This document shows, one piece after another, positions 1 to 58,809 of a stretch of 64,000 nucleotides of DNA (its first letter is position 1; each line of letters starts with the position of its first letter). The notes under the pieces were generated by a model. That model was not told where the DNA came from, did no database searches, and saw nothing but the letters and a program-made list of their open reading frames with translations. Position numbers and translations under genes: made by a program. This DNA comes from Mobula hypostoma (taxonomy: Eukaryota): positions 119,166,001 to 119,230,000 of the forward strand of contig NC_086097.1 in assembly GCF_963921235.1 (NCBI RefSeq), read 5' to 3'.

Positions 1-2405
1 AGTACTGGACCTCAGGAGAGAGAATCTGTAGAAGGTTTAAGGGATAGCTTTTTAGATAGCTTGTTGTTGAGCTCACTAGGGGATTGGCTGTGCTAGATTG
101 GATGTTGTGCAATGATCCAGAGTGATAAGAGAGCTTAAGGTTAAGGAACCCTTGGGGAACAGTGATCACATTATGATTGAGATAACTTTGAAATTTGAGA
201 AGAAGAAGCTAAATTCCAATGTGTTAGTATTTCACTGGAAGAAAGGAAATTACAATGGCATGAGAGGGGAATTGTCCAAGGTTGACTGGAAAGGACACTA
301 GCAGGAAGGACAGCAGAGTAGCAATGTCTGGAGTTTCAGAGAAAAATGAGGAAAGTGCAAGACAGATATATTCTAACGAAGAAGAAATTTTCAAATGGAA
401 GAAGGACACTATCGTGTCTGACAAGTGAAGTAAAAGCGAAAAAGAGGGCATACGAGGAAGCCAAATCTAGTGGGAAGATAGATTATTGGAAAGCTTTTAA
501 AAACTTCCAGAAGGAAACTAAGAAGATCATTAGGAAGGAAAAGATGAATTATGAAAGGAAGCTGGCGACTAATATCAAAGATACTAAAAGCTTTTTTAAG
601 TACAAACGTGTATATAAGGAGTAAAAGGGAGTTGAGGGTAGATACAGGACCAAGAGAAAATTATGCTGGAGATATTCTAATGAGAGATGCAGGGATGGCA
701 GAGGAACTGAATGCGTATTTTGCATCAGTCTTCACAGTAGAAGACATCTGCAATATACTGGACATTCAAGAGTGTCAGGGAAGTGAAGTACATGCAGTGA
801 AAATTGCAACTGAAAAGGTGCTCAGGAAGCTTAATGGTCTGAGGGTGGATACATCTCCTGGACCTGATGGAATGCACTCTTGGTTCGGAAGGAAGTAGCT
901 AGAGAGTTTGCGGAGGCAATAACAATAATCCTTCACAAATCGATAGATTCTGGCATTATACCGGATAACTGGAAAATTGCAGATGTTACTCCACTATTTA
1001 AGAAGGGTGGGAGGCAGCAGAAAGGAAACTATAGACCTGTTAGCCTGACATCAGTGGTTGGGAAGTTGTTGGAATCAATTGTTAGGGATGAGATTATGGA
1101 ATACCTGGAAGCACATGACAAGATAGGCCAAAGCCAGCATGGTTTCTTGAAAGGAAGATCCTGCCTGACTAATCTACTGCAATTTTTGAGGAAATTACAA
1201 GCAGTGTAGACAAAGGAGATGCAGTAGATATGGTGTACTTGGATTTTCAGACCTTTGACAAGGTGCCGCACATGAGGTTGCTTAGCAAGATAAGAGCCCA
1301 TGAAATTACAGGGGAGTTACTAGCATGGGTGGAGAATTGGGTGATTGGCAGAAAACAGACAGTGAGAATAAAGGGATCCTACTCTGGCTGGCTGCTGGTT
1401 ACCAGCGGAGTTCCACAAGGGTCGTTTGGGACCGCTGCTTTTTAAGATGTATGTCAAAAGTTTGGACTACGGTATTAATGGATTTGTGGCTAAATTTGGC
1501 AATGATACAAAGATAGGTGGAGGAGCAGGTAGTGCTGAGGAAACAGAGAGCTTGCAGATAGACTTAGATGGTTGAGGGGAATGGGCAAAGAAGTGGCAAA
1601 TGAAATACAATGTTGGAAAGTGTATGGTCATGCACTTTGGTGGAAGAAATAAACATGCTGACTATTACTTAGATGGAGAGAGAATTCAAGATGCAGAGAT
1701 GCAGAGGGTCTTGGGAGTCCTTGTGAAGGATACCCTAAAGGTTAACCTTCAGGTTGACTCGGTGGTGAAGAAGGCCAATGCAATGTTAGCATTCATTTCT
1801 AGAGGTATAGAATATAAGAGCAGGGATGTGATGTTGAGGCTCTATAAGGCATTCATGAATCCATATTTGGAGTATTGTGTGCAGTTTTGGGCTCCTTATT
1901 TTAGAAAGGATATACTGACATTGGAGAGGGTGCAGAGAAGATTTACAAGAACGATTCCATGAATGAGAACGTTACCATATGAGGAACGTCTGGCCACTCT
2001 GGGGCTGTATTCCCTGGAGTTCAAGAGAATGAGGGGGAATCTCATCGAAATGTTCCAAATATTAAAAGGCCTGAACAGATTAGATATGGAAAGGTTATTT
2101 CCCACGGTAGGGGAGTCTAGGACAAGAAGGACATCCATTTAGAACAGAGATAAGGAGAAATTACTTTAGTCAGACGGTGGTAAAACTGTGGAATTTGTTA
2201 CCATGAGCGGCTGTGGAGGCCAAGTCATTGCGTGCAATTAAGGCAGAGATAGATAGGTTCTTGATTAGCCAGGACATTAAAGAGTATGGGGTGAAAGTAG
2301 GGGAGTTGGGATGACTGGAAGAATTGGATGAGCCCATGATTGAATGGTAGAGCAGAGTCGATGGGCTGAATGGCCTACTCTGCTCCTATATCTTATGGTC
2401 TGATG
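1..2405 (+). mobile_element. CR1-clade LINE, decayed ORF2 (endonuclease end, RT) and 3' UTR
   Basis: Frameshifted ORF pieces carry CR1 RT motifs: SPGPDG, WKIADVTPLFKKG, NYRPVSLTS, QHGFLKGRSCLTNL, VYLDF..FDKVPH, SGVPQGS, LEYCVQFWAP. The 3' tail reads gatgggctgaatggcctactctgctcctatatcttatgg. Confidence 0.95.
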
Positions 2406-2949: not shown

Positions 2950-3550
2950 TGTAAGTTGAAGCATCGCTTCATCAGGCACCTCTGTACCATCCATCACAAG
3001 CAGGACTTCCCAATGGCCAAACATTTTAATTCCCATTCCCATTCCCATTCCCATTCTGATGTGTCATTCTACGGCCTCTTGTGCCTACATGAGGACATTC
3101 TCAGGGTGGAGGAGCAACAGCTTATATTCTGTCTGTGTCGCCTCCAACCTGATGGCATGAATATAAATTTCTCCTTCTGGTAAACAAATATCCTCCCCGA
3201 CTTTCTCTATCCCCACTCTGACCTTTTACCTCTTCTCACCTCCATATTACTTCCCCCTGGATTCCCTCCTTCTTCTCTTTCTCTATGGTCCATTCTCCTC
3301 TTCAATCAGATTCCTTCTTCTCCAGCCCATGACCTTTCCCACCCACTTGGCTTCACCTTTCATCTAGCCTCCTTCCCCTCCACCCACCTTTTTATTCTGG
3401 CATTTTACTGCCTTCCTTCTCAATACTGAAGAAGGGTCTCAAGCCAGAATGTTGGCTATCCATAGATGCTGCCTGACCTGCTGAGTTCCTCCAGCATTTT
3501 GTGTGTGTTTATTGCTCTGGATTTCCAGTATCTGCAGATTTCTCATGTTT
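2950..3550 (+). mobile_element. Penelope-like element 3' fragment (GIY-YIG C-terminus plus pLTR)
   Basis: Peptide HRFIRHL..QDFPMAKHFNSHSHSHSD..RVEEQQLIFCL..LQPDGMNINFS, a pyrimidine-rich tract, and the gatgctgcctgacctgctgagttcctccagc terminus. Confidence 0.88.
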
Positions 3551-3754: not shown

Positions 3755-4255
3755 ATTCAGTAGCCACTTTAATAGGTACACCTTTACAGTCACACGTTAA
3801 TGTAAATATCTAATCAGCCAATCATGTGGCAGCAACTCAATGCATTAAAACCTGCAGACATGGTCAAGAGGTTCAGTTGTTGTTCAGACCAAATCTCAGA
3901 AAAGGGAAGAAATATAACTCTGACCGTGGAACAATTGTTGGTGCCATATGGGGTGATTTGAGTATCTCAGAAACTGATGATCTCCTTTTGATGTACAACA
4001 CTCTCTACAGTTTCCAGAGAATGGAAATTGTAGACAATTTGCGAGAAACAAAAAACATCCAGCGAGTGGCAGTTGTTTGGGTGAAAACGCCCTGTTAATG
4101 AAAGAGGTCAGAGAAGAGTGGCCAGACTAATTCAAGCTGACAAGAAGGCGACAGTAATTCAAGCAACCACCTGCTACAACACCGGTGTACAGGAGAGCAT
4201 CCTTGAATGCACAACACTTCAGACATTCAAATAGATGGGCTACAGCAGCAGATAA
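3755..4255 (+). mobile_element. Tc1-derived MITE (cagtggccactttattaggtacac TIR family)
   Basis: TIR-like cagtagccactttaataggtacac; the body matches the other copies in the window. Confidence 0.8.
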
Positions 4256-5387: not shown

Positions 5388-5855
5388 TGAAGTGGCCACT
5401 GAGTGTGTTTGTGATCTTCTCGTGCTGTAGGCCATCCACTTTAAGGTTCAAAATTTTACGCATCCAGTGATGATCTTCTGTACTCCACTGTCGTCATGTG
5501 TGGTTACTTGAGTTACTGTCACCTTCCTACCACCTTGAACCAGTCTGGCCATTCTACTCTGACCTTTCACATTGACAACTTTCACCCACAGAACTGCTGC
5601 ACTTTATTTTTCACATGATTTTCACACCATTCTCTGTAAACTCAAGAAAATGTCATGCAAGAAAATCCAGGAGATCAGCAGTTTCTGAGATACTCAAACC
5701 ACCTCACCTGGCACAAAAAATCACCCTCCACAGTTATAATGATAGCATAGTCACATTTCTTCCCCATTCTGAAGTTTGGTCTGAACAACAGCCAAACATC
5801 TTGACAGTGTCTGCATGCTTTTATCCTTTGAGTTACTGCAACATGATCGGTTAAT
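5388..5855 (-). mobile_element. Tc1-derived MITE
   Basis: aagtggccactgagtgtg end; reverse complement of the family body. Confidence 0.8.
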
Positions 5856-5971
5856 TTTTAAATAGTGTTTGAGCTGTGGCTATTCACACGGTCAGGTGTC
5901 TAAAGAGAGTAGAGTAGTGGACATAGCATGCATTCCTGAGGTGTGCCAGTGTTGGCTGTCAGTGAGGAGTC

Positions 5972-8305
5972 CATATGACCATAAGACATAGAAGTAGAAT
6001 TAGGCCATTTTGCCTATCGAGTCTGCTGCATCATTTAATCATGGCTGATCCTTTTCTCTCCCTCCTCAGCCCCACTCCCCGGCCTTCTCCCCCCCACCCC
6101 TGTAACCTTTGATGCCATCTCCAATCAAGAACATATCAAGCTCTGCCTTAAATACACCCAACAACCTGGCCTCCACAGTTGCCTGTGGTAATAAATTACA
6201 CAAATTCATGACCCTCTGGCTAAAGTAATTTTTCTGCATATCTATTTTAAATGGAGGCCCCTCTATCCTGAGGCTGTGCTCCCTTGTCCTAGACTCCCTC
6301 ACCATGGGAAAGATCCTTTCAACATTCAAAGGGTTTCAATGAGATTCCCCCAAACCCAGAGCTATCAAGTGTTTCACGTTTAATAACCGTTTCATTCCCA
6401 GAAACAGCCTTGTGAACCTCCTCTGGACCCTCTTCAATGCCAGCACACCTTTTCTTAGATGAGGAGCACAAAACTGTTCACAATACTCAAGGTGAGGCCT
6501 CACCAGTGCCTTATAATGGCTCAGCATCACATCTCTGCTCTTATATTCTAGACCTCTTGAAGTGAATGCTGGCATTACATTTACCTTCCTCGCCACTGAC
6601 TGGACCTGCAAGTTAACTTTTAGCATGTTCTGCACAAGGTCTCTGAAGTCCTTTTACATCTCCGATTTTTGGATTTTCTTCCCATTTGGAAAGTAGTCTG
6701 CACATTTATTTATTCTATGAAAGTGCATGACCATGGATTTTTTAACATTGCATTTCATTTCCCACTTTCTTGCCCATTATCTGAATCTGCCCAAGTCTTT
6801 CTGCAGCCTACCTGTTTCCTCAACACCACCTGCCCTTCTACCAATCTTCATATCATCTGCAAAATTGGCAAAAAATCCATCCATTTCATCATCTAAATCA
6901 TCGATATACAATATAAAAAGAAGTGGTCCCAATACCAACACCTACGGAACACCACTAGTCACTGGCAGCCAACTGGACAAGGATCCTTTTATTCCCACTT
7001 GCTGCCTCCTACCAATAAGCCAATTCTCCAACCATGTTAGTAACTTTCCTGTAATACCATGGGCTCTTAACTTAGTAAGGGGCCTCATGTGGCACCTTGT
7101 CAAAGGTCTTCTGAAAGTCCAAATATACAACATCTACTGCATCCCCTTTATCTATCCTACTTGTAATCTCCTCAAAGAATTCCAACAGATTCGTCAGGCA
7201 AGATTTTCCCTTAAGGAGACCATGCTGACTTTGTCCTATCTTGTTCTGTGTCACCAAGTGACATAACAATTGACTCCAATATCTTCCCAACCACTGAGGT
7301 CAGGTTAACTGGTCTTTAACTTTATTTCTGCTGTCTTCCTCATTTCTTAATGAGTGGAGTGACATATGCAAGTTTCCAGTCCTCTGGCACCATGCTAGAG
7401 TCCAACAATATTTGAAAGATCATTACTAATGCCCCCAGAATTTCTACCACTACTTCTTTCAGAACTCTAGGGTGCAGCTCATCTGATCCAGGTGACTTAT
7501 TGCCCTTAGGTCTTTCAGATTTTTGAGCACCTTCTCTCTTGTAATAATAACTGAACTTACTTCCCTTCCCTCATGCACTACAACATCTGACACACTGCTA
7601 GTGTCTTCCACAGTGAAGGATGATGCAAGATACTCATTTAGTTCATCTGCCATCTTCTTGTCCCCTGTTATTATTTCTTCAGCCTCATTTTCTAGTGGTC
7701 CTATATCTTTTCTTATCTCTTGTTTATTTTTTACATACAAACGTTTGTACTTGAAAAAGCTTTTACTGTCCATTTCTCCCAGTTACTGTTGGGAGGTCTG
7801 TATAAAACTGCCATCAAGGCCCTTTTACCCTTGCAGCTTCTTAACTCGACCCAGAAGGATTCAACATCTTCCAAATCTATGTCACATCTTTCTACGGAAT
7901 TGATGCCATTCTTTTGCAGACGAGCTACCCCATCTCTCTGCCTACTTTCCCTTCACTTCGATACAACGTGTAACCTTGGATATTCAGCTCCCAACTGCAA
8001 CCATCCTTCAGCCACGATTCAGTGATGGCCACAACATCACACCTGATAATTTATAATAGTGCAACAAGATCATCCTCCTTATTTCTTATACTCTGTGTAT
8101 CGAGATATATAGCACTTTGAGTACTGCATTTGCTACCCCTTTTGACACTGCATCCCTTATGCACTGATACTCACCCTGGTGGCTGCAATTTTGTCCTACC
8201 TGCCCTTCCTGACAGTCTGACTGCATGCTATCTCGGCATTTTTAACACCTGTCCTATCCTGAGTTTCTTTACTCTGCTTCCCACCCTCCTGCCAAGTTAG
8301 TTTTA
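5972..8305 (-). mobile_element. CR1-clade LINE, decayed ORF2 with internal deletions
   Basis: Minus-strand ORFs QHGLLKGKSCLTNLLEFFE, VYLDFQKTFDKVPH, VTSGVP, RPHLEYCEQF; ccataagacatagaag 3' tail at the left end. Confidence 0.93.
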
Positions 8306-11546: not shown

Positions 11547-11745
11547 CAAACACCAGGAAATCTACAGATGCTGGAAATTCAAGCAACATACATAAAAACT
11601 GCTGGTGAACGCAGCAGGCCAGGCAGCATCCATAGAAAGAAGCACAGTCGACGTTTCGGGCCAAGACGCTCCGTCAGGACTAACTGAAAGAAGAGATAGT
11701 AAGAGATTTGAAAGTGGGAGGGAGAGGGAGATCCAAAATGATAGG
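11547..11745 (-). mobile_element. Penelope pLTR fragment with a degenerate hammerhead
   Basis: Near-identical to 17381-17580; minus strand reads agtc-ctgacgg-...-gaaacgtc-gact. Confidence 0.85.
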
Positions 11746-17058: not shown

Positions 17059-17476
17059 GGAATTGGTCTAGCAACCCTATCTCATTAAAAACCCAGAGAA
17101 CTGCCAGCAGAGGCTCCAAGGAGCTCATCCTAGGTAGAGGAATAATCTTCACCTACAGGTCCAGGACAGTGTCACAATGTGCGCTGACAATACTGGAACC
17201 CAAGTGCAGTGGAAAGACAGACATTTATGCAGAGATGGTGATGAGAGTTTATTCATAATCATTCCTAAAGAACACCAGTAACTTGGATGAGCGACACCAT
17301 GAGAAGTAACATTCTCAAAACCAGGACCCTGCGATTAGCGATAATCAGGCATCCGCTTAAATAATACAAGTAATACGGAAACAACAGGAATTCTGCAGAT
17401 GCTGGAAATTCAAGCAACACACATAAAAGTTGCTGGTGAACGCAGCAGGCCAGGCAGCATCTCTAGGAAGAGGTGC

Positions 17477-17512
17477 AGTCGACGTTTCAGGCCGAGACCC
17501 TTCGTCAGGACT
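17477..17512 (-). ncRNA. Minimal type I hammerhead ribozyme (Penelope pLTR)
   Basis: Minus strand agtc-CTGACGA-agg-gtctcgg-cct-GAAAC-GTC-gact: core, helix I and helix II are intact. Confidence 0.85.
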
Positions 17513-17810
17513 AACTGAAGGAAGAGTGAGTAAGGGATTTGAAAGTTGGAGGGGGAGGGGGAGATCCAAAATGATAGGAGAAGACAGGAGGGGGAGGGAT
17601 AGAGCCGAGAGCTGGACAGGTGATAGGCAAAAGGGATACGAGAGGATCATGGGACAGGAGGTCTGGGAAGAAAGACAAGGAAGTGGTGGGGGGTCCCAGA
17701 GGATGGGCAAGGGGTATATTCAGAGGGACAGAGGGAGAAAAAGGAGAATGAGAGAAAGAATATGTGTATAAAAGTAAGTAACAGATGGGGTACGAGGGGG
17801 AGGTGGGGCA

Positions 17811-19309
17811 TTAGCGGAAGTTAGAGAAGTCGATGTTCATGCCATCAGGTTGGAGGCTACCCATACGGAATATAAGGTGTTGTTCCTCCAACCTGAGTGT
17901 GGCTTCATCTTTACAGTAGAGGAGGCCGTGGATAGACATATCAGAATGGGAGTGGGATGTGGAATTAAAATGTGTGGCCACTGGGAGATCCTGCTTTCTC
18001 TGGCGGACTGAGCGTAGATGTTCAGCAAAGCGGTCTCCCAGTCTGCATCAGGTCTTGCCAATATATAAAAGGCCACATCGGGAGGACCGGACGCAGTATA
18101 TCACACCAGTCGACTCACAGGTGAAGTGTTGCCTCACCTGGAAGGACTGTTTGGGGCCCTGAATGGTGGTAAGGGAGGAAGTGTAAGGGCATGTGTAGCA
18201 CTTGTTCTGCTTACACAGATAAGTGCCAGGAGGGAGATCAGTGGGGAGGGATGGGGGGGAACGAATGGACAAGGGAGTTGCGTGGGGAGCGATCCCTGCG
18301 GAATGCAGAGAGAGGGGGGAGGGAAAGATGTGCTTAGTGGTGGGATCCCGTTGGAGGTGGCGGAAGTTACGGAAAATAATATGTTGGACCCGGAGGCTGG
18401 TGGGGTGGTAGGTGAGGACCAGGGGGACCCTATTCCTAGTTGGGTGGCGGGAGGAAGGAGTGAGAGCAGATGTACGTGAAATGGGGGAGATGCGTTTAAG
18501 AGCAGAGTTGATAGTGGAGGAAGGGAAGCCCCTTTCTTTAAAAAAGGAAGACATCTCCCTCATCCTAGAATGAAAAGCCTCATCCTGAGAGCAGATGCGG
18601 CGGAGATGGAGGAATTGCGAGAAGGGGATGGCGTTTTTGCAAGAGATAGGATGAGAAGAGGAATAGTCCAGATAGCTGTGAGAGTCAGTAGGCTTATAGT
18701 AGGCATCAGTGGATAAGCTGTCTCCAGAGACAGAGACAGAAAGATCTAGAAAGGGGAGGGAGGTGTCGGAAATGGACCAGGTAACCTTGAGGGCAGGGTG
18801 AAAGCTGAAGGCAAAGTTAATAAAGTCAACGAGTTCTGCATGCGTGCAGGAAACAGCGTCAATGCAGTCGTCGATGTAGCGAAGGAAAAGTGGGGGACAG
18901 ATACCAGAATAGGCACGGAACATAGATTGTTCCACAAAGCCAACAAAAAGGCAGGCATAGCTAGGACCCATACGGGTGCCCATAGCTACACCTTTAGTTT
19001 GGAGGAAGTGGGAAGAGCCAAAGGAGAAATTATTAAGAGTAAGGACTAATTCCGCTAGACGGAGCAGAGTGGTGGTAGAGGGGAACTGATTAGGTCTGGT
19101 ATCCAAAAAGAAGCAGAGAGCTTTGAGATCTTCCTGATGGGGGATGGAAGTATATAGGGACTGGACATCCATGGTGAAAATAAAGCGGTGGGGGCCAGGG
19201 AACTTAAAATCATCGAAAAGTTTAAGAGCGTGAGAAGTGTCACGAACATAGGTTGGAAGGGATTGAACAAGGGGGGATAAAACCGTGTCGAGGTATGCAG
19301 AAACGAGTT
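17811..19309 (-). pseudogene. Penelope RT-GIY-YIG polyprotein, 5'-truncated and disrupted
   Basis: MDVQSLYTSIPH, GVAMGTRMGPSYA, RYIDD, Cys linker CKQNKCYTC, VIYCVRSSRCGLLYIGKT. There is a premature TGA at 18048-18050, and a pair of compensating frameshifts relative to the plus arm. Confidence 0.92.
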
Positions 19310-20216
19310 CCCCACCACCACCACCCCACCAGCCTCCGGGTCCAACATATTATTCTCCGTAACTTCCGCCACCTCCAACGGGATCCCACCACTAAGCACA
19401 TCTTTCCCTTCCCCCCTCTCTCTGCATTCCGCCGGGATCACTCCCTACGCAACTCCCTTGTCCATTTGTCCCCCCCATCCCTCCCCACTGATCTCCCTCC
19501 TGGTGCTTATCTGTGTAAGCGGAACAAGTGCTACACATGTCCTTACACTTTCTCCCTTACCACCATTCAGGGCCCCAAACAGTCCTTCCAGGTGAGGCAA
19601 CACTTCACCTGTGAGTCGGCTGGGGTGATATACTGCGTCCGGTTCTCCCGATGTGGCCTTTTATATATTGGCAAGACCTGACGCAGACTGGGAGACCACT
19701 TTGCTGAACATCTACGCTCTGTCCGCCAGAGAAAGCAGGATCTCCCAGTGGCCACACATTTTAATTCCACATCCCACTCCCATTCTGACAGGTCTATCCA
19801 CGGCCTCCTCTACTGTAAAGATGAAGCCACACTCAGGTTGGAGGAACAACACCTTATATTCCGTCTGGGTAGCCTCCAACCTGATGGCATGAACATCGAC
19901 TTCTCTAACTTCTGCTAATGCCCCACCTCCCCCTCGTACCCCATCTGTTACTTACTTTTATACACATATTCTTTCTCTCACTCTCCTTTTTCTCCCTCTG
20001 TCCCTCTGAATATACCCCTTGCCCATCCTCTGGGTCCCCCCCCCACCTCCTTGTCTTTCTTCCCGGACCTCCTGTACCATGATCCTCTCGTATCCCTTTT
20101 GCCTATCACCTGTCCAGCTCTTGGCTCTATCCCTCCCCCTCCTGTCTTCTCCTATCATTTTGGATCTCCCCCTCCCCCTCCCACTTTCAAATCTCTTACT
20201 CACTCTTCCTTCAGTT

Positions 20217-20252
20217 AGTCCTGATGAAGGGTCTCGGCCTGAAACGTCGACT
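20217..20252 (+). ncRNA. Minimal type I hammerhead ribozyme (Penelope pLTR)
   Basis: agtc-CTGATGA-agg-gtctcgg-cct-GAAAC-GTC-gact; predicted cleavage after C20248; helix III reduced to palindromic ACGT. Confidence 0.88.
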
Positions 20253-21033
20253 GCACCTCTTCCTAGAGATGCTGCCTGGCCTGCTGTGTTCACCAGCAAC
20301 TTTTATGTGTGTTGCAAGTAATACGGAATTCCTGAGCCAATCAAAATAAACATAGCAAACTTAAAGAGAAAGCACCAGAAGAATGCATTACAAAGACCGA
20401 GTCACTCAAGAAAAAACACAAGGAACTCTAAAGAATTAACATCTGTCATTAAGTAACAATTAACCATTTCAGGTACTCTAAAATCCTTGGAGTCCAATGC
20501 TCTCTGGCACCTCACACAAGCCCAAAGAACACATTACAGACAAAGGACTCTAGCAAGTTGCTGTGGGAGGCCTATGGCCCAGTAAAGGTGATGGAATTAA
20601 AGAAGTTAGTAATTGACTCTCTTGAGAATAAAAACCTGGAGACTGAGAGCTGCTGACTCAGACAGGACACTGTGGCTCATTGAGGATATTCCTGAGGTCT
20701 TCTTAGTTCTTAGTCCTCTCTGTCCGGCAGTCTACCAACTCTCTCCATTCGCATCTTCTCTTCTCTTCTCATCTCTCCCCGACAAAAGACCACAAAATCC
20801 CTGTTCCCAGACCCACAAGAAAGAACAACATCTCACTCATTGGATAGCACACATTCCAAAGCCCCGTTATCTCTAGCCATAACCCAAGCATCGCTGCTAC
20901 AGAGAAACCATTACCTTAGCAGTGAAATCGTACAGTGCGTTACATGTACGCACATGAGAAAAGTGCATAGGCGCTGTGTGTGAAAGTGTGGATGTTTAAA
21001 CATGAGTACTACTATGTGTTTTTGTTTACTGCA

Positions 21034-28967: not shown

Positions 28968-31900
28968 ACTGACACAGTGCTGCAACCCCAGAACAGCAGT
29001 ACAGATTGAAAATACTGTGGTGAGCATGATGACAGACGAGAACACCCTCTAAACAAAACAACAGTTTTATTGCAATAAACAAAAGAACAGGCCTTGTGCC
29101 ATGACCCAGAGAGAGAACAGCTCAGTCTCATACAGATGGGGGAGGTGAGTATCACACACCCTGGTTACAGTTAGGGTGACCCACAAATACACAAGTGAAT
29201 AACTGTATAACCCAAGCTAAAATGTAACAATAAATGAATATAAACTTTCCACCATAATCCCACCAAAGCATTTTAACACAAGATCCATAAACAGTGCTGA
29301 TTATTAGAAATGTAGGGGTGGGCTGTTGACCACCCCCCCCCAGAGTGTCACACTGCCCCCATCTGAGGGGTCAGCCATGCCCAGCAACCCCAGAGTCCAA
29401 AACAAAGTCCAGAAGTCCTTGTGATGGCCGTCGCTGCCGCCTATGGTGCTGGGCGTTTTCTGGAGCCACGCCAGGGGATGCATTGTTTAGTGAGGCAAGA
29501 GGCAGGGCACTCAGAGTGTTAATCTTCCTTCAGCCTCATTGGGCCAGTGGTGGCCAAGGGCTGATATGGTGCCAACCGGTCCCAGTGCAGCACGACTGCC
29601 TTCTGCCACTCAGGCAAATGCACCTAATATACAGCATCGGAGATGCAGTCGAGCACCTCTCCCAGCCCCTTCCATTGGCTTCCCAGCATGGGGGATAGAC
29701 TCTTCTTCCTGGAGGGGCAGCAGTGACATGCTTGGTCTCCCCCAGCCAAGTCCTGACCCCGGCTGCGGGCGTCACAAGCTCGTTTCTGGTGACTGCTGGC
29801 CGAGCTGCATTATGTACAGCTCGCAGGCAGAGGTGCTGCAGGTACTCCTACCTGGTATTCCCCCAGGAATCCCTGGCTCGGGAGTGGGGGCTAACCACCA
29901 GATCCACTGGGGTGCACAGCTCTCGCCTGAACACGAGCACATCTGGCGTACACCTGGCGCCTTGCTGAACAGCTGTCGGTAACACCCATAATACCTGGGG
30001 AAGGTGGTGATCCCAATCGCGCTGGTGCTGGCTAAAGGGAATGGCCAGGGCATAGCCAGGAGACGTTTAAAGCGTCCCACCAGCCTATCACTTTGCAGGT
30101 AAAGCGGGGTGGTCCACATTTTGGTGATTCCCAGACACTTGCAGTCTTCGCTAAGCACCTGCACCTCAGTGTTGTGCCCCTGGTCACTGTGGAGTTCCTC
30201 AAGCGTGCCAAAGTAACAGAACTGTTCTACGAGTCTCTCAGCGGTGGTAGTGGTGCTCTGGTCTGGGACTGCGTACACCTCCGGCCACTTTGTGAAGTAA
30301 CCCATGGCCACGAGAACGCAGTGGATCCCGGCGTCAGTGCGGGGGAAGAGACGCAGGATGTTCACTCCTGTGCGCTCCACTGGGGGCACCACCAGGTAGT
30401 GCTGCATTGACATCCCATACTGACCGCCCAGCCCCTTCTGGGACGGGCAAACATTGCAGCAGCGCGCAAACAGCTCCACATCCTTCCTGCACGCGTGCCA
30501 AATGAAGTGTCCGCACAGCTCGCCCAATGTCTTTGCAACCCCGAAACGTCCGGCCCCGACCAGCCAGTGCACTGACCACAGCACCACGGTGTGGAGCCCC
30601 CAAGGGACCACCAGCCATAGGAGATGTCTGTCACCGTCAGGCAACTACCAACACCGGATCGGCAACCCGCACACTCCTCCAGCATGATAGTACGGGGCTT
30701 TGGTTTCTGGATCCAGGGCCGAGATCACCCGTGACCATGGCCGCTGTCCCATGCTCAGCCATCTCCTCACCCGGGCCAACAAAGGATCGCTCACCTGCTC
30801 ACTGCGCAGCTGCTGGTTGTCCATGGTGGGGAGATGCCCACTGGCTGCCACCTGAAGTGCCACTACTGCCACTTGCTGCCGGCTCTACACCCCGAGACGG
30901 CGACAGCGGCGACACTCAGTGGCCTCACAGGGAGGCGAGAGAGGGCATTAGCGTTGCCATGGTGCCTTCCGGCACGGTACTGCTTCTCAAAATCATGGCT
31001 CTGGAGAGCCTCTAACCACCACACAGTCTGCCTTTCGGGGCCACAGAAGCTCAACAGCTCCATCAGTGATGCATGGTCCGTGTGAAGCCGGAACCATCAG
31101 CCGAAGAGGTAGGGGCGGAGGTGGTGGAGAGCCTGGACCATGGCCAAGAGCTCCTGGCAGGTGACACAATCGTTCCATTCAGGGCAGATCAGGGTGCAGC
31201 TGAAGTATGCCACAGAACAGTTCTCCTTGAAACCCCCTCCTGTCACAGCACGGTGCCTCCCCCATTGCTGGCATCTGTATCAACAATGAAAGGGCATGTT
31301 GGATCAGGATACACCAGCACTGGGATCTGTGTGAGCACAAGTCAGAGCTGATCGAAGGTGGCAGCACAGGTGTCAATCCAGGCAAAGGGCCTCCCCTCTT
31401 CGGCGAGCTGGTGCAGGGAACTGGCAACGGTGACAAAGTCCTTAAAAATCCGGTGGTAGTATGATGCCAGCTTCAGGAAGCTGCGAAGCACAGAGTCATC
31501 ATGAGGGTTGGGCCATTCCCTGACTGGCGCCACCTTCTCAGGGTCCATCACCACTCCTTCTGCACTCACTATGTTTCCCAGGGACTTGGTCTGGCAGCGC
31601 AGCAGGCTGCACTTTGCAGGGTTGAGGTGCAAGTTCGCCTGGTGGATAGCAGCAAAATCCTCTTCCAGATTCAGCAGAACATCATCAAAAATGAAGGTGT
31701 GCTCCTGAAGATCATCCAAGTAGATGACACAGTGACTCCATGAAATGTGAGCCAGCACCCTCTACATCAGTCTCTCCAATGTTGCTGGGAGATTATACAG
31801 ACCAAACAGCATTACCCACAGTACCACAGCCCTTGACCAGTGGTGAAGGCAGTCTTGGGACGGGACTCTGGGGCCAGAACGACCTGCCAATAACCACTGT

Positions 31901-33190
31901 GGAGATTGAAAGAGCTGAACCAGGTCAAACCTGTGGTGTAGTTCAGGGCATCATCAATTCGGGGCAGTGGGTCACGGCAATGAGATGGTATTAGTCTAAG
32001 CAGAACTGCCATGTCCCATCATTCTTCCTGACTAACATTGCTGGCTGCCCATGGGCTGTGGGAGGGCTCAATGATGCTTACTGCTGCCATCTCTTTGATC
32101 CTCTGCTCCGCTGCCTGGCATTTTCTGAGGGCCAGGTGAGGGGCCAGGCGTCTCTTATGTTGCTGTGGTGTTGCACCAGCCCCGTTTGCCTGCCATCCTC
32201 GTCCTTGGCTGCGAAGATGTCAATGTGCTGGTCCAGGAGGTTCTCTAGCTGCCGCCACTGGTCCTGATCCAAACCAGGAGGGCACTGCAGTAGTGCTGCT
32301 GATGTTGTCGCTCTGCACCGATGCAGTTGCCGATGACAGGGGCACGATGCGCTGCGCCGGGGAAACCGGTGGTGGCTGTTGTCATGCCTACCTGGTCTGC
32401 TTCCTGGAGTTGCCCTGCAGAAGAGCCACGGTTTCAGCGCCGAAGTAGAGTGTGGCCCTCCCCCGGCACATCCACATGGGCCCCCTCAGTGGGACAGCAG
32501 GTCCAGGACAATGATGCAGGACTCAGGACTCACACATGTCGGCTATCCATGCCTTGTGCTCCACTGTGCTTTTCCCCACTGTGATGCACAGCCTCCTCTT
32601 CCCTCTCATCATTGCCCACACTAGTGATGTGGCTAGCTGGACTGCTGTCATTGTCCACCCAGGCGGGGATGGCTGGTCCGTGTTGGGGAGGACACCCGTA
32701 CAGATGATGGTGATAGTTGATCGTATGTCCACCAACGCACAGCATCTGAGGCACTCCACCATACAGTCCACATATAAGCCTTGCTCTTCACCCAAACTGC
32801 CCACCTGGGGAGGAGACAACAGAGGGATTCTGCTGGAGGTCTCAGTGATGCTAAAATGCCTTGAGGTCTAAAATTGCTTCTGCCCACTCCACCTCTGCCA
32901 GCACCTCCTCAAGAGATGATGGTAATTTCACTCTTGCGTCGGTGCCTTTGAAAAGGCATAGTGGGCAAGGTCATCCTGGGCTGCGGGAGGAAACGGGGGG
33001 TGACTATGCCAAACACAGTGGCAAGGATCTGCTGTGAATGCCCCCAAGCTTTCTCCTATTATGGCGCCATCTGCTGCCCAGTTCTTCCCTCTTTGCTTGT
33101 ACCAACTGCATTTGCTTGACCCACCTCTACGAGGGCTCTGTAGTCAAGCTGCTCTGCCGGTGTTCAGTGGCTTTTGGACACCACCACAGA
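28968..33190 (-). mobile_element. Gypsy/Ty3 LTR retrotransposon, decayed, 5' part missing; 3' LTR ~28968-29352
   Basis: Domain order on minus: protease (ALVDIRS), RT (PLPRIDD, SGYWQV, YLDD), RNase H, integrase (CNVC, GYFTKWPEVYAV, HSDQG). PPT-like agatgggggcag abuts the LTR start tgtgacac at 29352; AATAAA lies in the LTR on minus. Confidence 0.93.
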
Positions 33191-34815
33191 CTGTGGCTGA
33201 GCATTCCATAGATTCACTATTCTTTGGCTAAAAAAAATCCTCCTTACCTCTATTCTAAAAAGTCACCCCTCAATTTTGATGCTACCCTCTATTTCTGGAT
33301 AACCCCACCACAGGAAACATCCTCTCCACATTCAGTTTGTCTAGTCCTTTCAACATTTGGTAGGTTTCATTGAAATTCACTGCATTTTTCTAAATTCAAG
33401 TGAGTACAGGCCCAAAGCTGTCAAACACTCCTCATATGTTAACCCTTTCATTCCTGGAATCGTCCTCATGAACCTCCTCTGGACTCTTTCCATTTACAAC
33501 ACATCATTTCTGAGATATGGGGCCCGAAACCATTGACAGTACTCCAAGTGTAGCCTGACTAGTGTCTTATAAAGCCTCAGCATTATCTCCTTGCTTTTAT
33601 TTTCTATTCCCCTTGAAATAAATGCCAACATTGCATTTGCCTTCTTTACCACAGACTCAACCTGTAGATTTACCTTCTGGGAGCCTTGTACAAGGACTCC
33701 TAAGTCCCTCTGCACCGCTAATGTTTGAACCTTCTCCCCATTTAGTTAGTATTCCACACTATTGTTCCTTTTACCAAAATGCATTAACATACATTTCCCA
33801 ACACTGTTTTCCTTCAGCCACATTTTTTGCCCATTATTCCAATTTCTCGAAGTCCTGCTGTAATCAGATTGTTTCCTCAGCACTACCTACCCCTCCACCT
33901 ATCTATATATCACTTGAAAACTTCACACAAAGCCATCGATTCCATTATCCAAACCATTGACAAGCAATATGATAAGTAGCGGCCCCAATACTGACCCCAG
34001 AAGAACACCACTGGTCACTGGCAGCCAACCAGAAAAGGCCCCTTTTATTCTCACTCACTGCTTCCTGCCTGTAAACTATTGTTCTATCCACGCCAGTGTC
34101 TTTCCTGTAATGCCACAGGATTTTATCTTTTTAAGCAACCTGAGGTGTGTCACCTTTCAAATGCCTTCTGAAAATCCAAGTAAATGATATCCACGTGGAA
34201 TTCTGCAGATGCTGGAAATTCAAGCTACACACATCAAAGTTGCTGGTGAACGCAGGAGGCCAGGCAGCATCTCTAGGAAGAGGTACAGTTGCCGTTTCGG
34301 GCCGAGATCCTTCGTCCTGACAAGGGGTCTCGGCCCTAAACGTCGACTGTACCTCTTCCTAGAGATGCTGCCTAAATGACATCCACTGCCTCTTCTTTGT
34401 CCATCCTGCTTGTTACTTCCTCGAAGAACTCTAAGAGATTTGTCAGGCTAGATTTCCCATTACAGAAACCATGTTGACATTGTCTTATTTTGTCATTAGT
34501 CTTTAAGTATCCCGAAATCTCATCCTTAATAATAGACTCCAACACTTTCCCAACCATTCAGATTAGGCTAACTGGCCTATAATTCCCTTTCTTTTGTCAT
34601 AAAGAGTAAACTGACATATGCAATCCTCTAGTCCTCTGGGACCATGGCAGAATCAAATGATTCTTGAAAGATCATGATGAATGCATCTATTATCCCTTCA
34701 GCAACCTTTCTCAGGACTCTCGGATGTAGTCCATCTGCTTTAGGTGACTTATCCACCTTAAGACCTTTGAGTTTGCCTGGCATTTTTTCCTTTGTAATAG
34801 CATTGGCACTCATTC
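33190..34815 (-). mobile_element. CR1 LINE fragment
   Basis: KSPKADGLHPRVL, QHGFCNGKSSLTNLLEFFE, RLHLEYCQ. Confidence 0.92.
34195..34372. mobile_element. Mini Penelope fold-back insertion inside CR1
   Basis: TSD taaatgatatccac (34181-34194) / taaatgacatccac (34373-34386); ~55-bp inverted arms meet within the hammerhead CTGA region. Confidence 0.9.
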
Positions 34816-52148: not shown

Positions 52149-52667
52149 TTCCTACCTAGTAGCTGCATTAGTAATTAAAGAAGGTAGATTAGGGAGAGTT
52201 CAAGTCAAATCAAGTTGATTTTATTGTCATATGCACATGTGTGTCACATGCATAGGTCAAGATGGACAATGGCCTACATCCCATGAATAGACAAAGCTGT
52301 AATTACTCCTCTCCCATCCAAAACCTTACATCTCCAGGGGCAGAATAAATACATAGATAACATCCCAGGCTAATGAAAAACAAAGTTATCTCCAACTACT
52401 TATACAGATTTATTCTGATCGCCTGTTTAAGAACAGTGATTACATTGGTTACCTGGGTGTAATTGGGTGGTGCAGATGCATTGGGCTGGAAGGGCCTGTT
52501 AACACATTATATCTCTAAACTTAAATTAAAAATTAAATTAACATCTTGAATGTTAAAGTCTATTGTCAGTCTTATGACCATAAGTGGAATAAATTTGCTG
52601 ATATTTCACAGGAAAGTGACTCTTGGAGTTTCTATATTTCTGAATAAGTAGGCAACATATTTTGTTC

Positions 52668-52803
52668 GTAAACAACAGGAATTCTGCAGATGCTGGAAAT
52701 TCAAGCAACATACATCAAAGTTGCTGGTGAACGCAGCAGGCCAAGCAGCATCTATATAGATGCTGCTTGGCCTGCTGCGTTCACCAGCAACTTTGATGTA
52801 TGT
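52668..52803. mobile_element. Mini Penelope fold-back insertion with a perfect 96-bp palindrome (52708-52803)
   Basis: 14-bp TSD aacatattttgttc (52654-52667 / 52804-52817); base-by-base symmetry about 52755/52756. Confidence 0.95.
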
Positions 52804-54854: not shown

Positions 54855-55485
54855 GATAGGATTTCTTTGTGGCCACCGATTTTAATTCTACTTCCCATTC
54901 CCATTCCGACATGTCAGTCAATGACTTCCTCTACTACCATGATGAGTCCTTCTCATGTTGGAGGAGCAAGTTTGTATATTCTGTCTGAGTAGCTTCCAAC
55001 CTGATGGCATTGACATTGATTTCTCTAACTTCTGGAAGTTTCTCTCCCTTCCCCTTCTCGCTTTTTGCATTCCTCATTCTGGCTACCCTCTTACGCCTTC
55101 CCTTCTCCTCACATGCCCATCACCACCCTCTGGTCACCCTCCTCGTTCCCTTTCTCCCACATTCCACTGTCTGCTCCTATCATGTTTCTTCTTTGGTTCT
55201 TTCCCTTTGCCACCTATCACCTCCCAACTTCTCACTTCATCCCTTCTCTCCCACCCACCCAACTTCACCCTCACCCAGCTTCACCTGTCTCTAGCCAGCT
55301 TATACGCCATCCTCCATTTATAGCTTCCTATTCTGGCTTCTTCACCTTTCATTTTGAGTCCTGATGAAGGATCTCAGTTTGAAATATTGACTGTTTATCC
55401 ATCTCCATAAATAATGCCTGACCTGTTGAGTTCTTCCTGCAATACTCTGGATCTTCAGCATCTACAGAAACTCTTGTGTTTATGA
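54855..55485 (+). mobile_element. Penelope 3' fragment with a degenerate hammerhead (~55357-55393)
   Basis: LEEQVCIFCLSSFQPDGIDIDFSNF; agtcctgatgaagg..gaaatattgact. Confidence 0.85.
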
Positions 55486-55764
55486 TACACATATAGGAGC
55501 ATCAAATTTGACTTCTGTCTTCAAGAATGGGTTGGGTGAATTTGAGAAGATAGCTGCTCTTGTCCGGAATGAGCCGTCTTTCTCAGGAGCAGTTCTAGTA
55601 TCATTTATTAAGTCCAGAATAGAAACCCTGCCAACTTTAAACTGCAGTAAGTTTTGTCAGGTAAAGGAAAATGAAAGGGCTGCCAATGCAGCCCCAAAGA
55701 GGTGTATAGCTGTGGACAGTTGGAAAGCCACAAGTTCTCAAGGCAACGAGGTCTTAGGCTACAT

Positions 55765-55844
55765 CAGGGGTTCCCAACCTTATTTAATTCCGTAGACAAA
55801 TACCATTAAGCAAGGGGTCCTTGGACCCCAAGTTGGGAACCCTG
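55765..55844. mobile_element. 80-bp hAT (Charlie-like) MITE
   Basis: TIR caggggttcccaac / gttgggaaccctg; 8-bp TSD ggctacat / ggctagat. Confidence 0.85.
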
Positions 55845-56346
55845 GGCTAGATCATACTTGCAATGAAGTCCTGTTGTTCATATCTAGCCAACTGCCACTC
55901 TCCTACCCATCAGATATGAAAGATTCAAGCTTCAAGAATAAAGGTGGTTTATTGGCGTTCTTCAGTGCACAAGTGTAAAGGAGATCAAAATGATTTTTAC
56001 ACTGGATCTGATGCAGCATAAAAAATATTCAGTCGCAATAAATATATTCATCCATCTATTGAAGACTTGTACCTAACATACATCTTGTGCTTCCGAAGTG
56101 CTTCACAATAACTCGAGGAAGTTCATACCTTGGATCGACCTGAGTATTTCCAGTAGTGAGCTCACATAGTCATAAATGACAGGTCAAGACAGTAAAACAC
56201 TGTGAGTAGTGGCATGCTGTGTGTATTATATTGCTGTCATTGCCATCAGAGCCATGTAACATCTGACTTATAAAGAGATGTAATATTGGTATCTGCCAAT
56301 ACATTCAAAGAGACGAATAATATTTCATTATTGATACTTAAATCAG

Positions 56347-56491
56347 CTTCTCCATGGATTGTCTCCTTGTCGTGGTGGAGAAGCTTGTGTGGTCCTGTGA
56401 TCCCGAGAGCAATGCCATCTGGAGCTATGCTCCTGGTAGGGTCACCCATGATAGTAAGGTTGAGGGTGAGGACCCTGACAAAGAACAATCC
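56347..56491 (+). ncRNA. HDV-like ribozyme candidate
   Basis: P1 cttctcc(56347-53)/ggagaag(56377-83); P2 ggattgtc(56356-63)/g(a)acaatcc(56483-91); P3 cc/gg around a 7-nt L3 ttgtcgt; J4/2 Caaa with the candidate catalytic C at 56479. Confidence 0.6.
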
Positions 56492-56765
56492 AACCAAGAC
56501 CTCAACAGTGGAACAGGCGGACAAAGTTACTTTGAACTCAATGGCTGTGAAGGCGGATGAAGGCTGCAACAAATCCATCAGTCCAATCATTGTGGTTTCC
56601 ATGCCATTGGAATCAGTTGTTTGATTTGTTAAGTATCGTGTGCTTCTTGGAGTGCAACACCAAGTACACGTTAAACAAATACCCGCACAGGCATCTTTGC
56701 TCTGTGGGCCACTTCTTCAGAATGAAGACCATCATCCTCGACCTCAAGGGGTAGCCACGACGACG
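56347..56765 (+). mobile_element. 419-bp non-autonomous RTE-like retroelement
   Basis: Perfect 11-bp TSD acttaaatcag (56336-56346 / 56766-56776); RTE/Expander-like 5' UTR (ccttgtcgtggtggag..ctggtagggtcaccc); (ACG)n tail; no RT. Confidence 0.85.
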
Positions 56766-58809
56766 ACTTAAATCAGGTTTTCTGTTGATGAAAGAAAACA
56801 ATAGTTAGCTCCCTGTTAAGATAAAGCCAGACAATTAGATTTCCAATGAGTTTTCCTCTCTAGTTGATGAAATTTTAGCAATGAATTGTGGTAGGAAAGG
56901 AAAAAAAATCTATTTTTGTATTTATTGCAATCTTGTTTGCATAAGATTGATGGGAAACATAATTAATGTTATTGATTGGATTCTATTGAAAGATCTAACA
57001 ATTAAACTATATTTTTTCCACAACCTGCATTATGTTTAAAGGTATCTGAAGAGCTATAAACCAGAACGAATCCTGTTAAGAAGTAATTAACACTTAATGC
57101 TGTGGAGAAGCGAAGTTCGCAGAGATACCCACAGTAGAAACACAGCTCTGAGATAGTGCTGAGGGTATGTGATTGGGAATTAACAGGAGCTTGGTTTACA
57201 TAATCAGGAATCATCAATTTACCTCAAAAAATCCCATCCAGCAAAACAAACTATTGCTGGAGGTATCATTTCTTCCCTAAAGCATTTTAATGAGTGTTAT
57301 CTCCCAAATCTGAGTCCATTTCTATTGGCATGATTTCACTTAGACTTCCAACTATAATTCCAAAGTGGTGCAAAGCATTTCTGTAGCAATGCTAAAACTA
57401 TGCTCCCCTTATCTTACCTATCCTCCCCTCAACTTCATTTCCTGTTAGCCATACAATTCTCTCCCATTAATCCTTCAGTATTATTTAGTTATATAAGAAC
57501 AGTAACCTGAGTCAACTGCTACCTAAAGAGAAAATGTTGGGAATACACAGGAGATTATCCAGCCCTCAAATGGCCTAATAATATCATTTGTGGTTTTATG
57601 TCAACTTTTGCCAAATAATACTCTGACACCCCTAAATAATATTCCTAGTGGTGAGATATAAATAAGTAGTAAAACTCTCATAACCTGCAATGGAAATACC
57701 AATATTTTGATACATGTTTCACTGGCTGTTTTTCTCTGCGCTTAACTCCCCGGGGCCTGTTCGCACAGTCCTTTTAAACTCAGAGGCCCTTAATTTTCTG
57801 TGCATCTTTTAAATCTACCAGGGGCCCATTTAATGTGCTGATTTTAGAAACACAAGGGCCTTGTTTCCCATAATCCCTTTAAATTTACCACAGCCCTATT
57901 TCCCATATTGCCTTTTACTGAAAAGTGTATTATGATACTGTATAACATATAAAATTAAGTAGAATGTGTGTTGTGTTATTAGTTGCAGCAACGTCCAGTC
58001 ATCTGGCAGATCTGCCAGTTCAGCACCACCAGTAGAGTCTTGAGGTTGCCGGACCGCAGGAGTTTCACTGGAAATTCTCTACTTTGTAGAATTTTGAGAT
58101 TAATTTTCAGGCTATATTTGCGCATATTTTGACTGAAGTAAGCAATCATATCCACAGAATGCTTCAAGAAATATAAAAGCAAAAATCTATCGATTAATTG
58201 CAACCATTTCTTAGAAATGTGCAGAATGTCCTTCAATGTTAAAGTTGTACATTAAATGTTTTTTTTTAGTTTATATACAAAGCAGCAATAATCAAATGGA
58301 TTTCTAAATTGTTCAGCCTTGCTGTGGCCCTTAATGAGTTGTCTCAAATAGTCTGTCAGGGTCAAATATGAAATTGAAGTGGCATATTCTCCACACAGGA
58401 AGAAAGACAGCATTAGAAACATGGGTCAATACCCTAATCTTTCAATAGTGTAAATTAAGAGGTTTGAAAGCAGGTGGATGATACACCTTTGCAGCTGAAG
58501 AATATACATACATGACATTGATGAATTTGAAAAAAAAGTAAGAGAATCTATTCAGGGCCTAGAAATGTTGCTGTTGGATTCACTACATGACTGATTACTG
58601 TGCTGGCATTAAAACTCAACATTTTGCCACTTTATTGTTTATCTTAGCAGTGTGCAAAGATATAAATCCCAATCTTCTTACACATTCATTTTAAAGCCCA
58701 TCTTTTTTTTAATCTTTTGATGAGTGGGACTTTAGACATTAAATAATTTTGAAAGGATCACTTAAAAATAATAATTGCTCAATGGGGATGCGAGAGTCTG
58801 CAGACTCCT

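Follow-up and report, generated by a model that had tools for sequence, protein, structure and literature searches.

A 419-bp RTE-derived retroposon with a predicted HDV-like ribozyme at its 5′ end

An aged 419-bp retroposon copy was found in a 64-kb stretch of animal DNA (the window, meaning the whole stretch analysed), and its first bases carry helices in the order of HDV-like ribozymes. It is probably an RTE-derived retroposon whose head would cut the RNA immediately before C56347 and whose RNA would be copied in trans by an RTE protein. Homology to published RTE entries shows that the 5′ part of the element derives from an RTE 5′ UTR and includes the LINE 5′ end. The RNA is likely freed by self-cleavage, with copies mostly starting at the first base of the fold. 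Features are listed in Table 1.

Table 1. Coordinates of the retroposon copy, its predicted ribozyme helices and flanking repeats (positions in the window).
Feature	Coordinates	Strand	Basis or remark
Target site duplication (TSD), 5′ copy	56336..56346	none	Last two bases, A and G, able to pair with 56384-56385
Bipartite RTE-derived retroposon copy, non-autonomous, 419 bp	56347..56765	+	TSD, family junctions, RTE homology
P1 5′ strand	56347..56353	+	C56347 is +1; predicted cleavage just 5′; family junctions cluster here
J1/2 linker, 2 nt (1 nt if T56355 pairs with A56492)	56354..56355	+	Helix reading
P2 5′ strand	56356..56363	+	Pairing, covariation
P3 (56364-66 with 56374-76) and 7-nt L3 (56367-73)	56364..56376	+	Outer pair T-T
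P1 3′ strand (56377-83) and C56384, single P1.1 partner	56377..56384	+	Pairing, covariation
Long branched P4 domain, 93 nt	56385..56477	+	For example 56385-87/56475-77, 56391-95/56470-74, inner stems
J4/2 with predicted catalytic C56479	56478..56482	+	Invariant in 16/16 rows
P2 3′ strand, A56484 bulged	56483..56492	+	Pairing, covariation
Rest of RTE 5′ UTR-derived segment	56493..56697	+	Locus L008; RTE-3_Crp 153-348 and relatives by eye
Junction zone between 5′- and 3′-derived parts	56698..56717	+	Depth drop, extra variants in run X9; thin in organism D
3′ segment common to elements differing upstream	56718..56756	+	Loose ends before 56718
(ACG)3 microsatellite tail	56757..56765	+	Letters; loose ends behind 56766/56767
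TSD, 3′ copy	56766..56776	none	Exact repeat

A sequence-only reading of the same DNA had placed the start of the element by a perfect 11-bp TSD. The exact repeat was found, and the 11-mer has no third occurrence in the window. Such a match has a chance probability of ~6e-7 at a single place and 5e-4 with 30x30 registers. TSD length is given as 9–11 bp because the first two TSD bases could also continue the (ACG)n tail; this overlap leaves the 5′ boundary at 56347 unchanged. BLAST and a covariance model identified the element as the sole copy in the window. A tblastn search with RTE-type proteins of >950 aa detected no reverse transcriptase (RT) or endonuclease coding in the element beyond one 21-residue match, the predicted N-terminus of one RTE-type protein. 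The element had been called ORF-less; this holds for RT and endonuclease coding, but a 156-codon stop-free frame spans most of the minus strand. Animal DNA rich in repeats, including RT fragments of LINE type, surrounds the insertion. As for a host gene at the insertion, two candidate exons near 55430–55795 had no homologs.

Parts of the stretch are contained in 20 of 24 sequencing runs (8 organisms, 9 studies), and four of these runs were examined. Summed contig depth rises from ~9–50 in the flanks to 1e4–1e6 between 56347 and 56767, which shows that the element belongs to a high-copy repeat family, contig depth itself being no copy number. Loose ends before 56347 comprise 111 contigs in run X1, 122 in X6 and 130 in X9, from three organisms. 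They agree at only ~0.35, so the flanks are unrelated and AT-rich. At the 3′ end, loose ends fall behind 56766–56767. Given the clustering before 56347, the first P1 base is the commonest 5′ end of the family among the places listed, as had been anticipated for an element that starts at its own cut site. Dispersed copies in the three organisms thus have their two ends in common while their flanks are unrelated, and the TSD was seen directly at the window copy only. In organism B (X6) the same flank is joined to the element start, so the insertion is older than the split between organisms A and B. The window copy departs from the majority letter at ~25 listed places, many at CpG, and sister elements diverge from the window sequence at 56450–56477, 56512 and 56718.

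Relatives were collected with a two-motif head pattern taken from the window, which returned 20 metagenome loci and 0 matches in the genome-contig and viral-contig collections. Nineteen loci were homologous to the head; L007, without a BLAST hit, was dropped as a chance match. L008 is 68% identical to element positions 1–351. Downstream of the head, L002 and L011 carry a reading frame that resembles an endonuclease. Among the 134 relatives of L002 are many single ORFs of ~1000 aa that combine an endonuclease with an RT domain, and some are named craniofacial development protein 2-like (CFDP2-like), a name that presumably marks RTE-derived endonucleases. Three short fragments from L002/L011 matched no Pfam family significantly. 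Kojima 2018 links the retained LINE 5′ end with predicted RTE ribozymes (PMC5786205). In the supplement to that paper, whose parts compared here do not print the first ~20 bases or the 3′ ends of the Repbase entries, RTE-3_Crp, RTE-7_PM, RTE-1_AC_1 and RTE-15_CPB are collinear with the element head to their positions ~343–348. RTE-3_Crp 24–155 matches 56367–56493 at ~107/128 columns, counted by eye, and its 153–348 parallels 56496–56697, also read by eye. The first base of L3 is position 24 of RTE-3_Crp and RTE-14_Lch, 20 of RTE-1_Crp and 21 of the element; the match to the Repbase RTE heads sets in at about base 1, homology beginning within 1–3 bases of the first base. RTE-3_Crp, RTE-7_PM, RTE-1_Crp, RTE-1_AC_1 and RTE-15_CPB have the same 5′ UTR as the element and are themselves LINE entries (PMC5786205).

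This origin bears on another reading, a conventional Pol III SINE headed by a small RNA, which the size, the many copies, the TSD and the RTE-type tail bring to mind. That alternative is extremely improbable: RTE homology, in the printed parts of the Repbase entries, begins within 1–3 bases of the first base, no tRNA gene was found in the 64-kb window, none of 14 exact B-box matches in the window lies inside the element, and the element has no Rfam match. The earlier suggestion that self-cleavage takes the place of a Pol III promoter agrees with the missing tRNA gene and B box, to which an internal Pol II promoter must be added as another possibility.

The head of the element contains P1, P2, P3, P1′, P4 and P2′ in the order of a nested double pseudoknot. 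All helices named in the sequence-only reading are present, and an HDV-like descriptor matched the window at a single site, 56347, vs none in 40 shuffled windows. P1 is Watson-Crick paired at 7/7 positions. P2 (56356-63 with 56483 and 56485-91) is paired at 8/8, and T56355-A56492 is a possible ninth pair. P3 consists of two G-C pairs and an outer T-T mismatch, P1.1 is the single pair G56369-C56384, and several P4 pairs are broken in the window copy. When the P3/L3 core and P1 3′ strand were kept fixed and the flanks shuffled, a perfect P1 arose in 15/20000 shuffles, a perfect P2 in 20/20000, and a perfect P2 preceded by CNAA in 0/20000. At the gathering threshold nothing in the window matched Rfam, and relaxing the cut-off to E<=10 still brought up no ribozyme family in this region. 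The relatives L002, L008, L009 and L013 were likewise without an Rfam match, and the Rfam HDV-type models therefore miss this subtype.

Two variants of the helix model were rejected. An 8-bp P1 would take G56346 as +1. This G is present in both TSD copies, position -1 is variable among relatives, and the loose-end places listed include 56766, with 53 contigs, but not 56346. A 4-bp P3 is broken in L002, L003 and L010, and the seventh P1 position is still complementary in L002 and L003.

Covariation was assessed in alignment A1, which holds the window copy and 15 of the 19 homologous loci (16 rows); L006, L016, L019 and L020 were omitted, their heads duplicating those of L001, L004, L012 and L014. 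The aligned heads are only 53–71% identical to the window copy. Covariation of P1, P2, P3 and P1.1 had been proposed as a check, and double-sided changes were found in 6/7 P1 pairs and all eight P2 pairs. Over the core, 14/19 pairs change on both sides vs a shuffled mean of 7.8, and 0/500 shuffles equal this count. Of the cells, 89.5% are paired vs 75.2% after shuffling and 34–48% in slid registers. Four of five covariation measures were reached by 0/500 shuffles, and the fifth by 45/500. Because kinship inflates the full-alignment statistics, covariation was repeated after reducing each family to a single row (9 rows). P2 then had 69/72 cells paired and P1 49/62, values reached by 2/51,840 and 16/51,840 sampled strand swaps, respectively. 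The branched P4 brings 12 further double-sided pairs for a total of 26/45, a count in which most P4 stems were derived from RNAalifold on the same alignment.

RNAalifold recovers P2 unaided. It also draws a rod, in which P2 is extended by L3/P3 pairing with J4/2, and the minimum-energy fold of the head is the same kind of structure (-53.0 kcal/mol), with L3 and J4/2 sequestered. The nested half of the HDV fold reaches ~-39 kcal/mol and P1 adds -9 kcal/mol, pseudoknot terms excluded. A rod-shaped hairpin as the only structure, with no ribozyme, would fit both predictions and the head MFE z-score of only -1.74. However, the folding programs used cannot draw pseudoknots, and P1, which crosses P2, covaries at 6/7 pairs, whereas the inner rod pairs show no double-sided change. 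P3 also stays paired when both of its sides change, in viral copies and in RTE1-N1_LA as printed. We consider the rod on its own very unlikely.

Positions outside the helices were similarly constrained. C56479 and the two following A's are unchanged in 16/16 heads, and none of the three was part of the search pattern; conservation of this cytosine had been named as a point on which the ribozyme reading could fail. CNAA precedes the best P2 partner in 15/20 metagenome loci (15/19 RTE-like) vs 0/25 phage loci having the same core motif. P1.1 is G-C in 13/13 ungapped rows, and with zero variation it is conserved but shows no covariation. The +1 base is C in 12 of the 16 rows, T in 2, A in 2 and G in 0, and the +1 pair is formed in just 8/13 ungapped rows. 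The P3 outer pair is A-U in 14/16 rows vs T-T in the window copy. A1 cannot test P3, L3 and part of P4, because the search pattern fixed them. The supplement to Kojima 2018 (PMC5786205), in its printed parts, shows both P3 inner pairs swapped yet paired in RTE1-N1_LA and RTE-1_OAf, and a viral copy has G-C as the P3 outer pair. A strict descriptor was passed by only 3/20 metagenome loci.

Several features of the window copy are handicaps for cleavage. The final A and G of the TSD can lengthen P1 to 10 pairs (-15.7 vs -9.1 kcal/mol), capturing the P1.1 cytosine. With this P1-extending flank and the ~25 differences from the family majority, the window copy is probably a weak or dead cutter. The mismatch in P3 was confirmed. 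In X6, listed rows at other positions account for every T change counted at a level of at least 5% (T>A 1, T>C 8, T>G 2), so T56364 seems to be the family state there; X1 and X9 contain unlisted T>A rows. The mismatch thus seems family-wide in the organism of X6. J1/2 is also short, at 1–2 nt; in drz-Agam-2 constructs, whose P2 is longer, a 1-nt spacer gave little cleavage and spacers of 3–7 nt slow cleavage (PMC4908430).

HDV/CPEB3-type ribozymes have a G1-U wobble at the cleavage site. The C at +1 and the one-pair P1.1 had been listed as non-canonical; both are present in the element, but they are not anomalies, since the active L1Tc/NARTc ribozymes share both. Trypanosomatid ribozymes cut before C1 (PMC4035085), and with C1 the rule in active L1Tc-type ribozymes, the missing G1-U wobble excludes only the G1 subtype. 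In L1TcRz, P1.1 has 1–2 bp and a G at -1 can disrupt it by lengthening P1 (PMC3185411). The printed L1Tc 3′ primer implies a CNAA-G start of the P2 3′ strand, as in the element (PMC3185411, PMC4035085, PMC3383444). NARTc, an ORF-less internal-deletion derivative of L1Tc, cleaves too (PMC3185411). L1TcRz and the element are therefore alike in C1, in a 1–2-bp P1.1 (one pair in the element), in sensitivity to G at -1 (predicted for the element) and in retention of the head by a short derivative, NARTc. They differ in that L1TcRz, of the Ingi clade, is 77 nt long, has a short P4 and is proven both to cleave and to act as a promoter, whereas the element, of the RTE clade, has a 93-nt branched P4 and a fold predicted from sequence. 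The P3 T-T mismatch is the real oddity among the non-canonical points. A P3 mismatch is reported for TvSIDER1b, a fold that its authors regard as compatible with activity (PMC3383444).

The start of the copies could instead be set by an internal Pol II promoter, the inherited fold then serving as end protection or as a protein-binding site with little cleavage. Pol II initiation on C is unusual, which counts against this explanation, and so does the retention of the catalytic-position C and the J4/2 AA in 16/16 heads of 53–71% identity. On its side are the short J1/2 and the P3 T-T that is apparently fixed in X6, yet accompanied by a sharp copy start at 56347. The mismatch loses weight with TvSIDER1b, also mismatched in P3 (PMC3383444). 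Precedents exist on the same side: Pr77 of L1Tc is promoter and ribozyme in one, with transcripts from +1 (PMC3185411, PMC3383444), and some trypanosomatid SIDER heads are inactive despite adequate folds (PMC4035085). Taken together, we regard a promoter-defined start as unlikely and self-cleavage as the preferred reading.

The 3′ part of the element comprises only ~50–70 bases. The segment 56718–56756 likely comes from the 3′ UTR of a partner LINE, judging from the letters joined to it in other elements. Loose ends before 56718 comprise 31 contigs in X6 and 5 in X15. The 5 X15 contigs joining at 56718 read S-H-S-K-A-H-K-stop in a 30-letter consensus, hinting that an ORF terminates directly upstream of the common 48 terminal bases; the X6 consensus before 56718 has an agreement of only 0.59. 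The L002-derived RTE-type proteins end in another C-terminal motif. No autonomous element with both ends was recovered, and the 3′-end pattern was unmatched in viral contigs. The bipartite RTE origin put forward in the sequence-only reading is therefore secured on the 5′ side by collinearity with Repbase RTEs (in their printed parts), while the origin of the short 3′ part is drawn from 30-letter loose ends.

Rather than by simple internal deletion, the element could have arisen by tail exchange, as a chimera in which an RTE family supplied the 5′ UTR and another LINE the 3′ end. Tail exchange is known among RTE-derived elements, and the divergence of sister elements at 56450–56477, 56512 and 56718 would fit, as would the far fewer organism D contigs over 56691–56732 than over the 5′ part. 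The L002-derived C-terminal motif, unlike that in the loose ends, points the same way, but L002 belongs to a distant subfamily (60% in the head), and its C-terminus is a poor guide to the true partner. Against the chimera, a short microsatellite tail and an A-starting TSD suit an RTE-type insertion; tail and first TSD base match in RTE-related elements (PMC6007223). We judge the chimera rather unlikely. It is compatible with the ribozyme reading, since it touches the origin of the 3′ part only.

Under the favoured self-cleaving model, a source copy would be transcribed by Pol II, either from upstream or internally. P1 would form first during transcription, and P2 would then close the double pseudoknot. 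The first ~146 bases would constitute the ribozyme, with C56479 as the putative catalytic base. The head would remove upstream RNA at +1, leaving a 5′-OH RNA that may retain a compact terminal fold. An RTE endonuclease-RT would bind the 3′ end in trans, and the ACG repeat may anneal at the nick. Target-primed reverse transcription (TPRT) would copy the RNA to its 5′ end, which would yield unit-length copies with 9–11-bp TSDs.

Bipartite RTE LINEs composed of a 5′ UTR and a 3′ end with the ORF absent, as in the element, include RTE1-N1_LA, RTESINE1/2, WALLSI3 and MAR4_MD (PMC5786205). RTE1-N1_LA (~400 nt) has the same L3 and J4/2 motif, a paired P3, and P1 at its first bases (PMC5786205). The element differs from RTE1-N1_LA-type elements, as printed, in host and RTE subfamily, in its (ACG)n tail and in the mismatched P3 outer pair, and the P2 bulge belongs to the element alone. 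R2 SIDEs are ORF-less derivatives that retain the HDV-like 5′ fold, and RTE 5′-junction cleavage is cited as known (PMC6765202, PMC3774820). R2 ribozymes resemble the element in an HDV-like fold at a non-LTR 5′ end, though R2 is site-specific in rDNA. In drz-Agam-2 it is J1/2 that is large and structured, and P2 has 12 bp; the element has a J1/2 of 1–2 nt and its large insertion in P4 (PMC4908430). Since ribozyme-headed internal-deletion elements are known from NARTc, R2 SIDEs and RTE1-N1_LA, the principle is not new. No paper on the family of the element and no covariation model of its head were found in a search that covered neither most subscription journals nor Repbase reports nor Ruminski et al. 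2011. The fold may already have been shown in Ruminski et al. 2011, the key RTE ribozyme paper, or in its supplement.

Covariation and family-wide 5′ junctions support a largely predicted link, namely that RTE-derived non-autonomous elements retain a self-cleaving head and start at its cut site. The thousands of junctions in a genome would reveal in vivo where the RNA begins, and cleavage could easily be assayed with a 146-base construct. RTE UTRs are used as gene-writing templates, so a structure model of the head has practical value.

More broadly, and as a tentative proposal that we hold at somewhat under even chances as a whole, the RTE 5′ UTR of many animal RTE families would be a single conserved HDV-like ribozyme of the C1 type whose P4 is large and branched, would have its core in common with L1Tc and with the minimal ribozymes, devoid of P4, of prokaryotic virus contigs, and would have been amplified massively despite a P3 U-U mismatch and a 1–2-nt linker. 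If true, the family would offer a natural test of what the HDV core tolerates and of what sets a retroposon 5′ end, cleavage or just the fold. The shared core has a pyrimidine at +1, a single, purine-first P1.1, a UUGNCGY loop and a CNRA-G start of the P2 3′ strand. Carriers include crocodile, lamprey, coelacanth and elephant Repbase entries, assigned by suffix, and termite- and fish-like contigs.

Assembled contigs leave the window sequence within the 419-bp RTE-derived retroposon copy at 56450–56477, 56512, and 56718. These loose ends reveal at least one sister family, in which the head with its predicted HDV-like ribozyme is shared, the base of P4 is better paired, and the middle is different. 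Elements having just the last ~48 bases in common with the window element were also revealed by loose ends. At two metagenomic loci (L013 and L017), viewed from the head to about +400, other short elements combine this head with a different 3′ end and a GAT-type tail, and adjoin AT-rich microsatellites. They are likely further bipartite RTE derivatives.

Among the sequences printed in the supplement of Kojima 2018 (PMC5786205), SINEs that acquired this RTE segment downstream of a tRNA head lack parts of the ribozyme. In SINE2-1_EC, L3 carries a G-to-A change and the P1 3′ strand is shortened; the match of IdioSINE2 to the RTE segment starts directly 3′ of the ribozyme (PMC5786205). The losses in these two SINEs are in line with the suggestion made by the authors of that paper.

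The insertion site was compared with run X9, an assembly run of coded organism D. Flanks 56250–56337 and 56775–56855 have equal contig depth (9.47), and the left flank piece apparently ends at the TSD. Flank depth and the end of the left piece would be compatible with organism D having an empty site there, although the joint between the two flanks is not among the rows listed.

Four minimal HDV-like folds lacking P4 were predicted inside an 8-kb stretch of L039, a 112-kb IMG/VR contig. Each is preceded by a T run and placed between ORFs or at ORF ends. Their core is that of the RTE head, with C+1, a 7-bp P1, a G-C P1.1, and a bulged P2. Three have E values of 3e-7 to 3e-6 under the RTE-built model, at loci preselected by a similar motif. 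A tRNA search of the surroundings found none near the folds, which may have a role in processing a polycistronic viral transcript. A minimal-core pattern search of viral contigs returned 41 loci, including seven outside the L039 contig with P1 paired at 7/7 positions, P2 at ≥6/8, and C at +1. No tRNA was called at these seven, and several are less than ~1 kb from a match to the pistol or RAGATH-5 ribozyme. Non-tRNA minimal HDV-like ribozymes are already known from phages (PMC10879173).

Positions of window features and of predicted folds and minimal-core loci on viral contigs
Feature	Position	Strand	Remark
Short relatives of inverted-repeat element	11548–11745, 34197–34316, 52667–52803
Inverted repeat, 1 kb	17414–18414 / 19316–20315		96.6% identity
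RT-like frame	18048–19349		flanked by repeat arms
Candidate LTR retroelement remnant	29772–32485	minus	GC-rich
58-codon frame	55480–55656	minus	candidate terminal exon
Four predicted P4-less minimal HDV-like folds	L039, ~3977–4048, 5495–5565, 5949–6018, fourth near 3240–3300	minus
Minimal-core viral loci	L051, L056, L057, L058, L066, L072, L076, each near 1480–1560		P1/P2 pairing, C at +1

A splice-acceptor-like pyrimidine tract lies ahead of the 58-codon frame. This frame could be a terminal exon, and the element would then sit antisense in an intron. A homolog search with the frame gave no match. Other retroelement-like sequences are present in the window. The GC-rich region contains decayed integrase- and RT-like minus-strand frames and resembles an LTR retroelement remnant. 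The inverted-repeat/RT unit (17414–20315) is presumably a young Penelope-like element, and we take the short relatives to be fragments.
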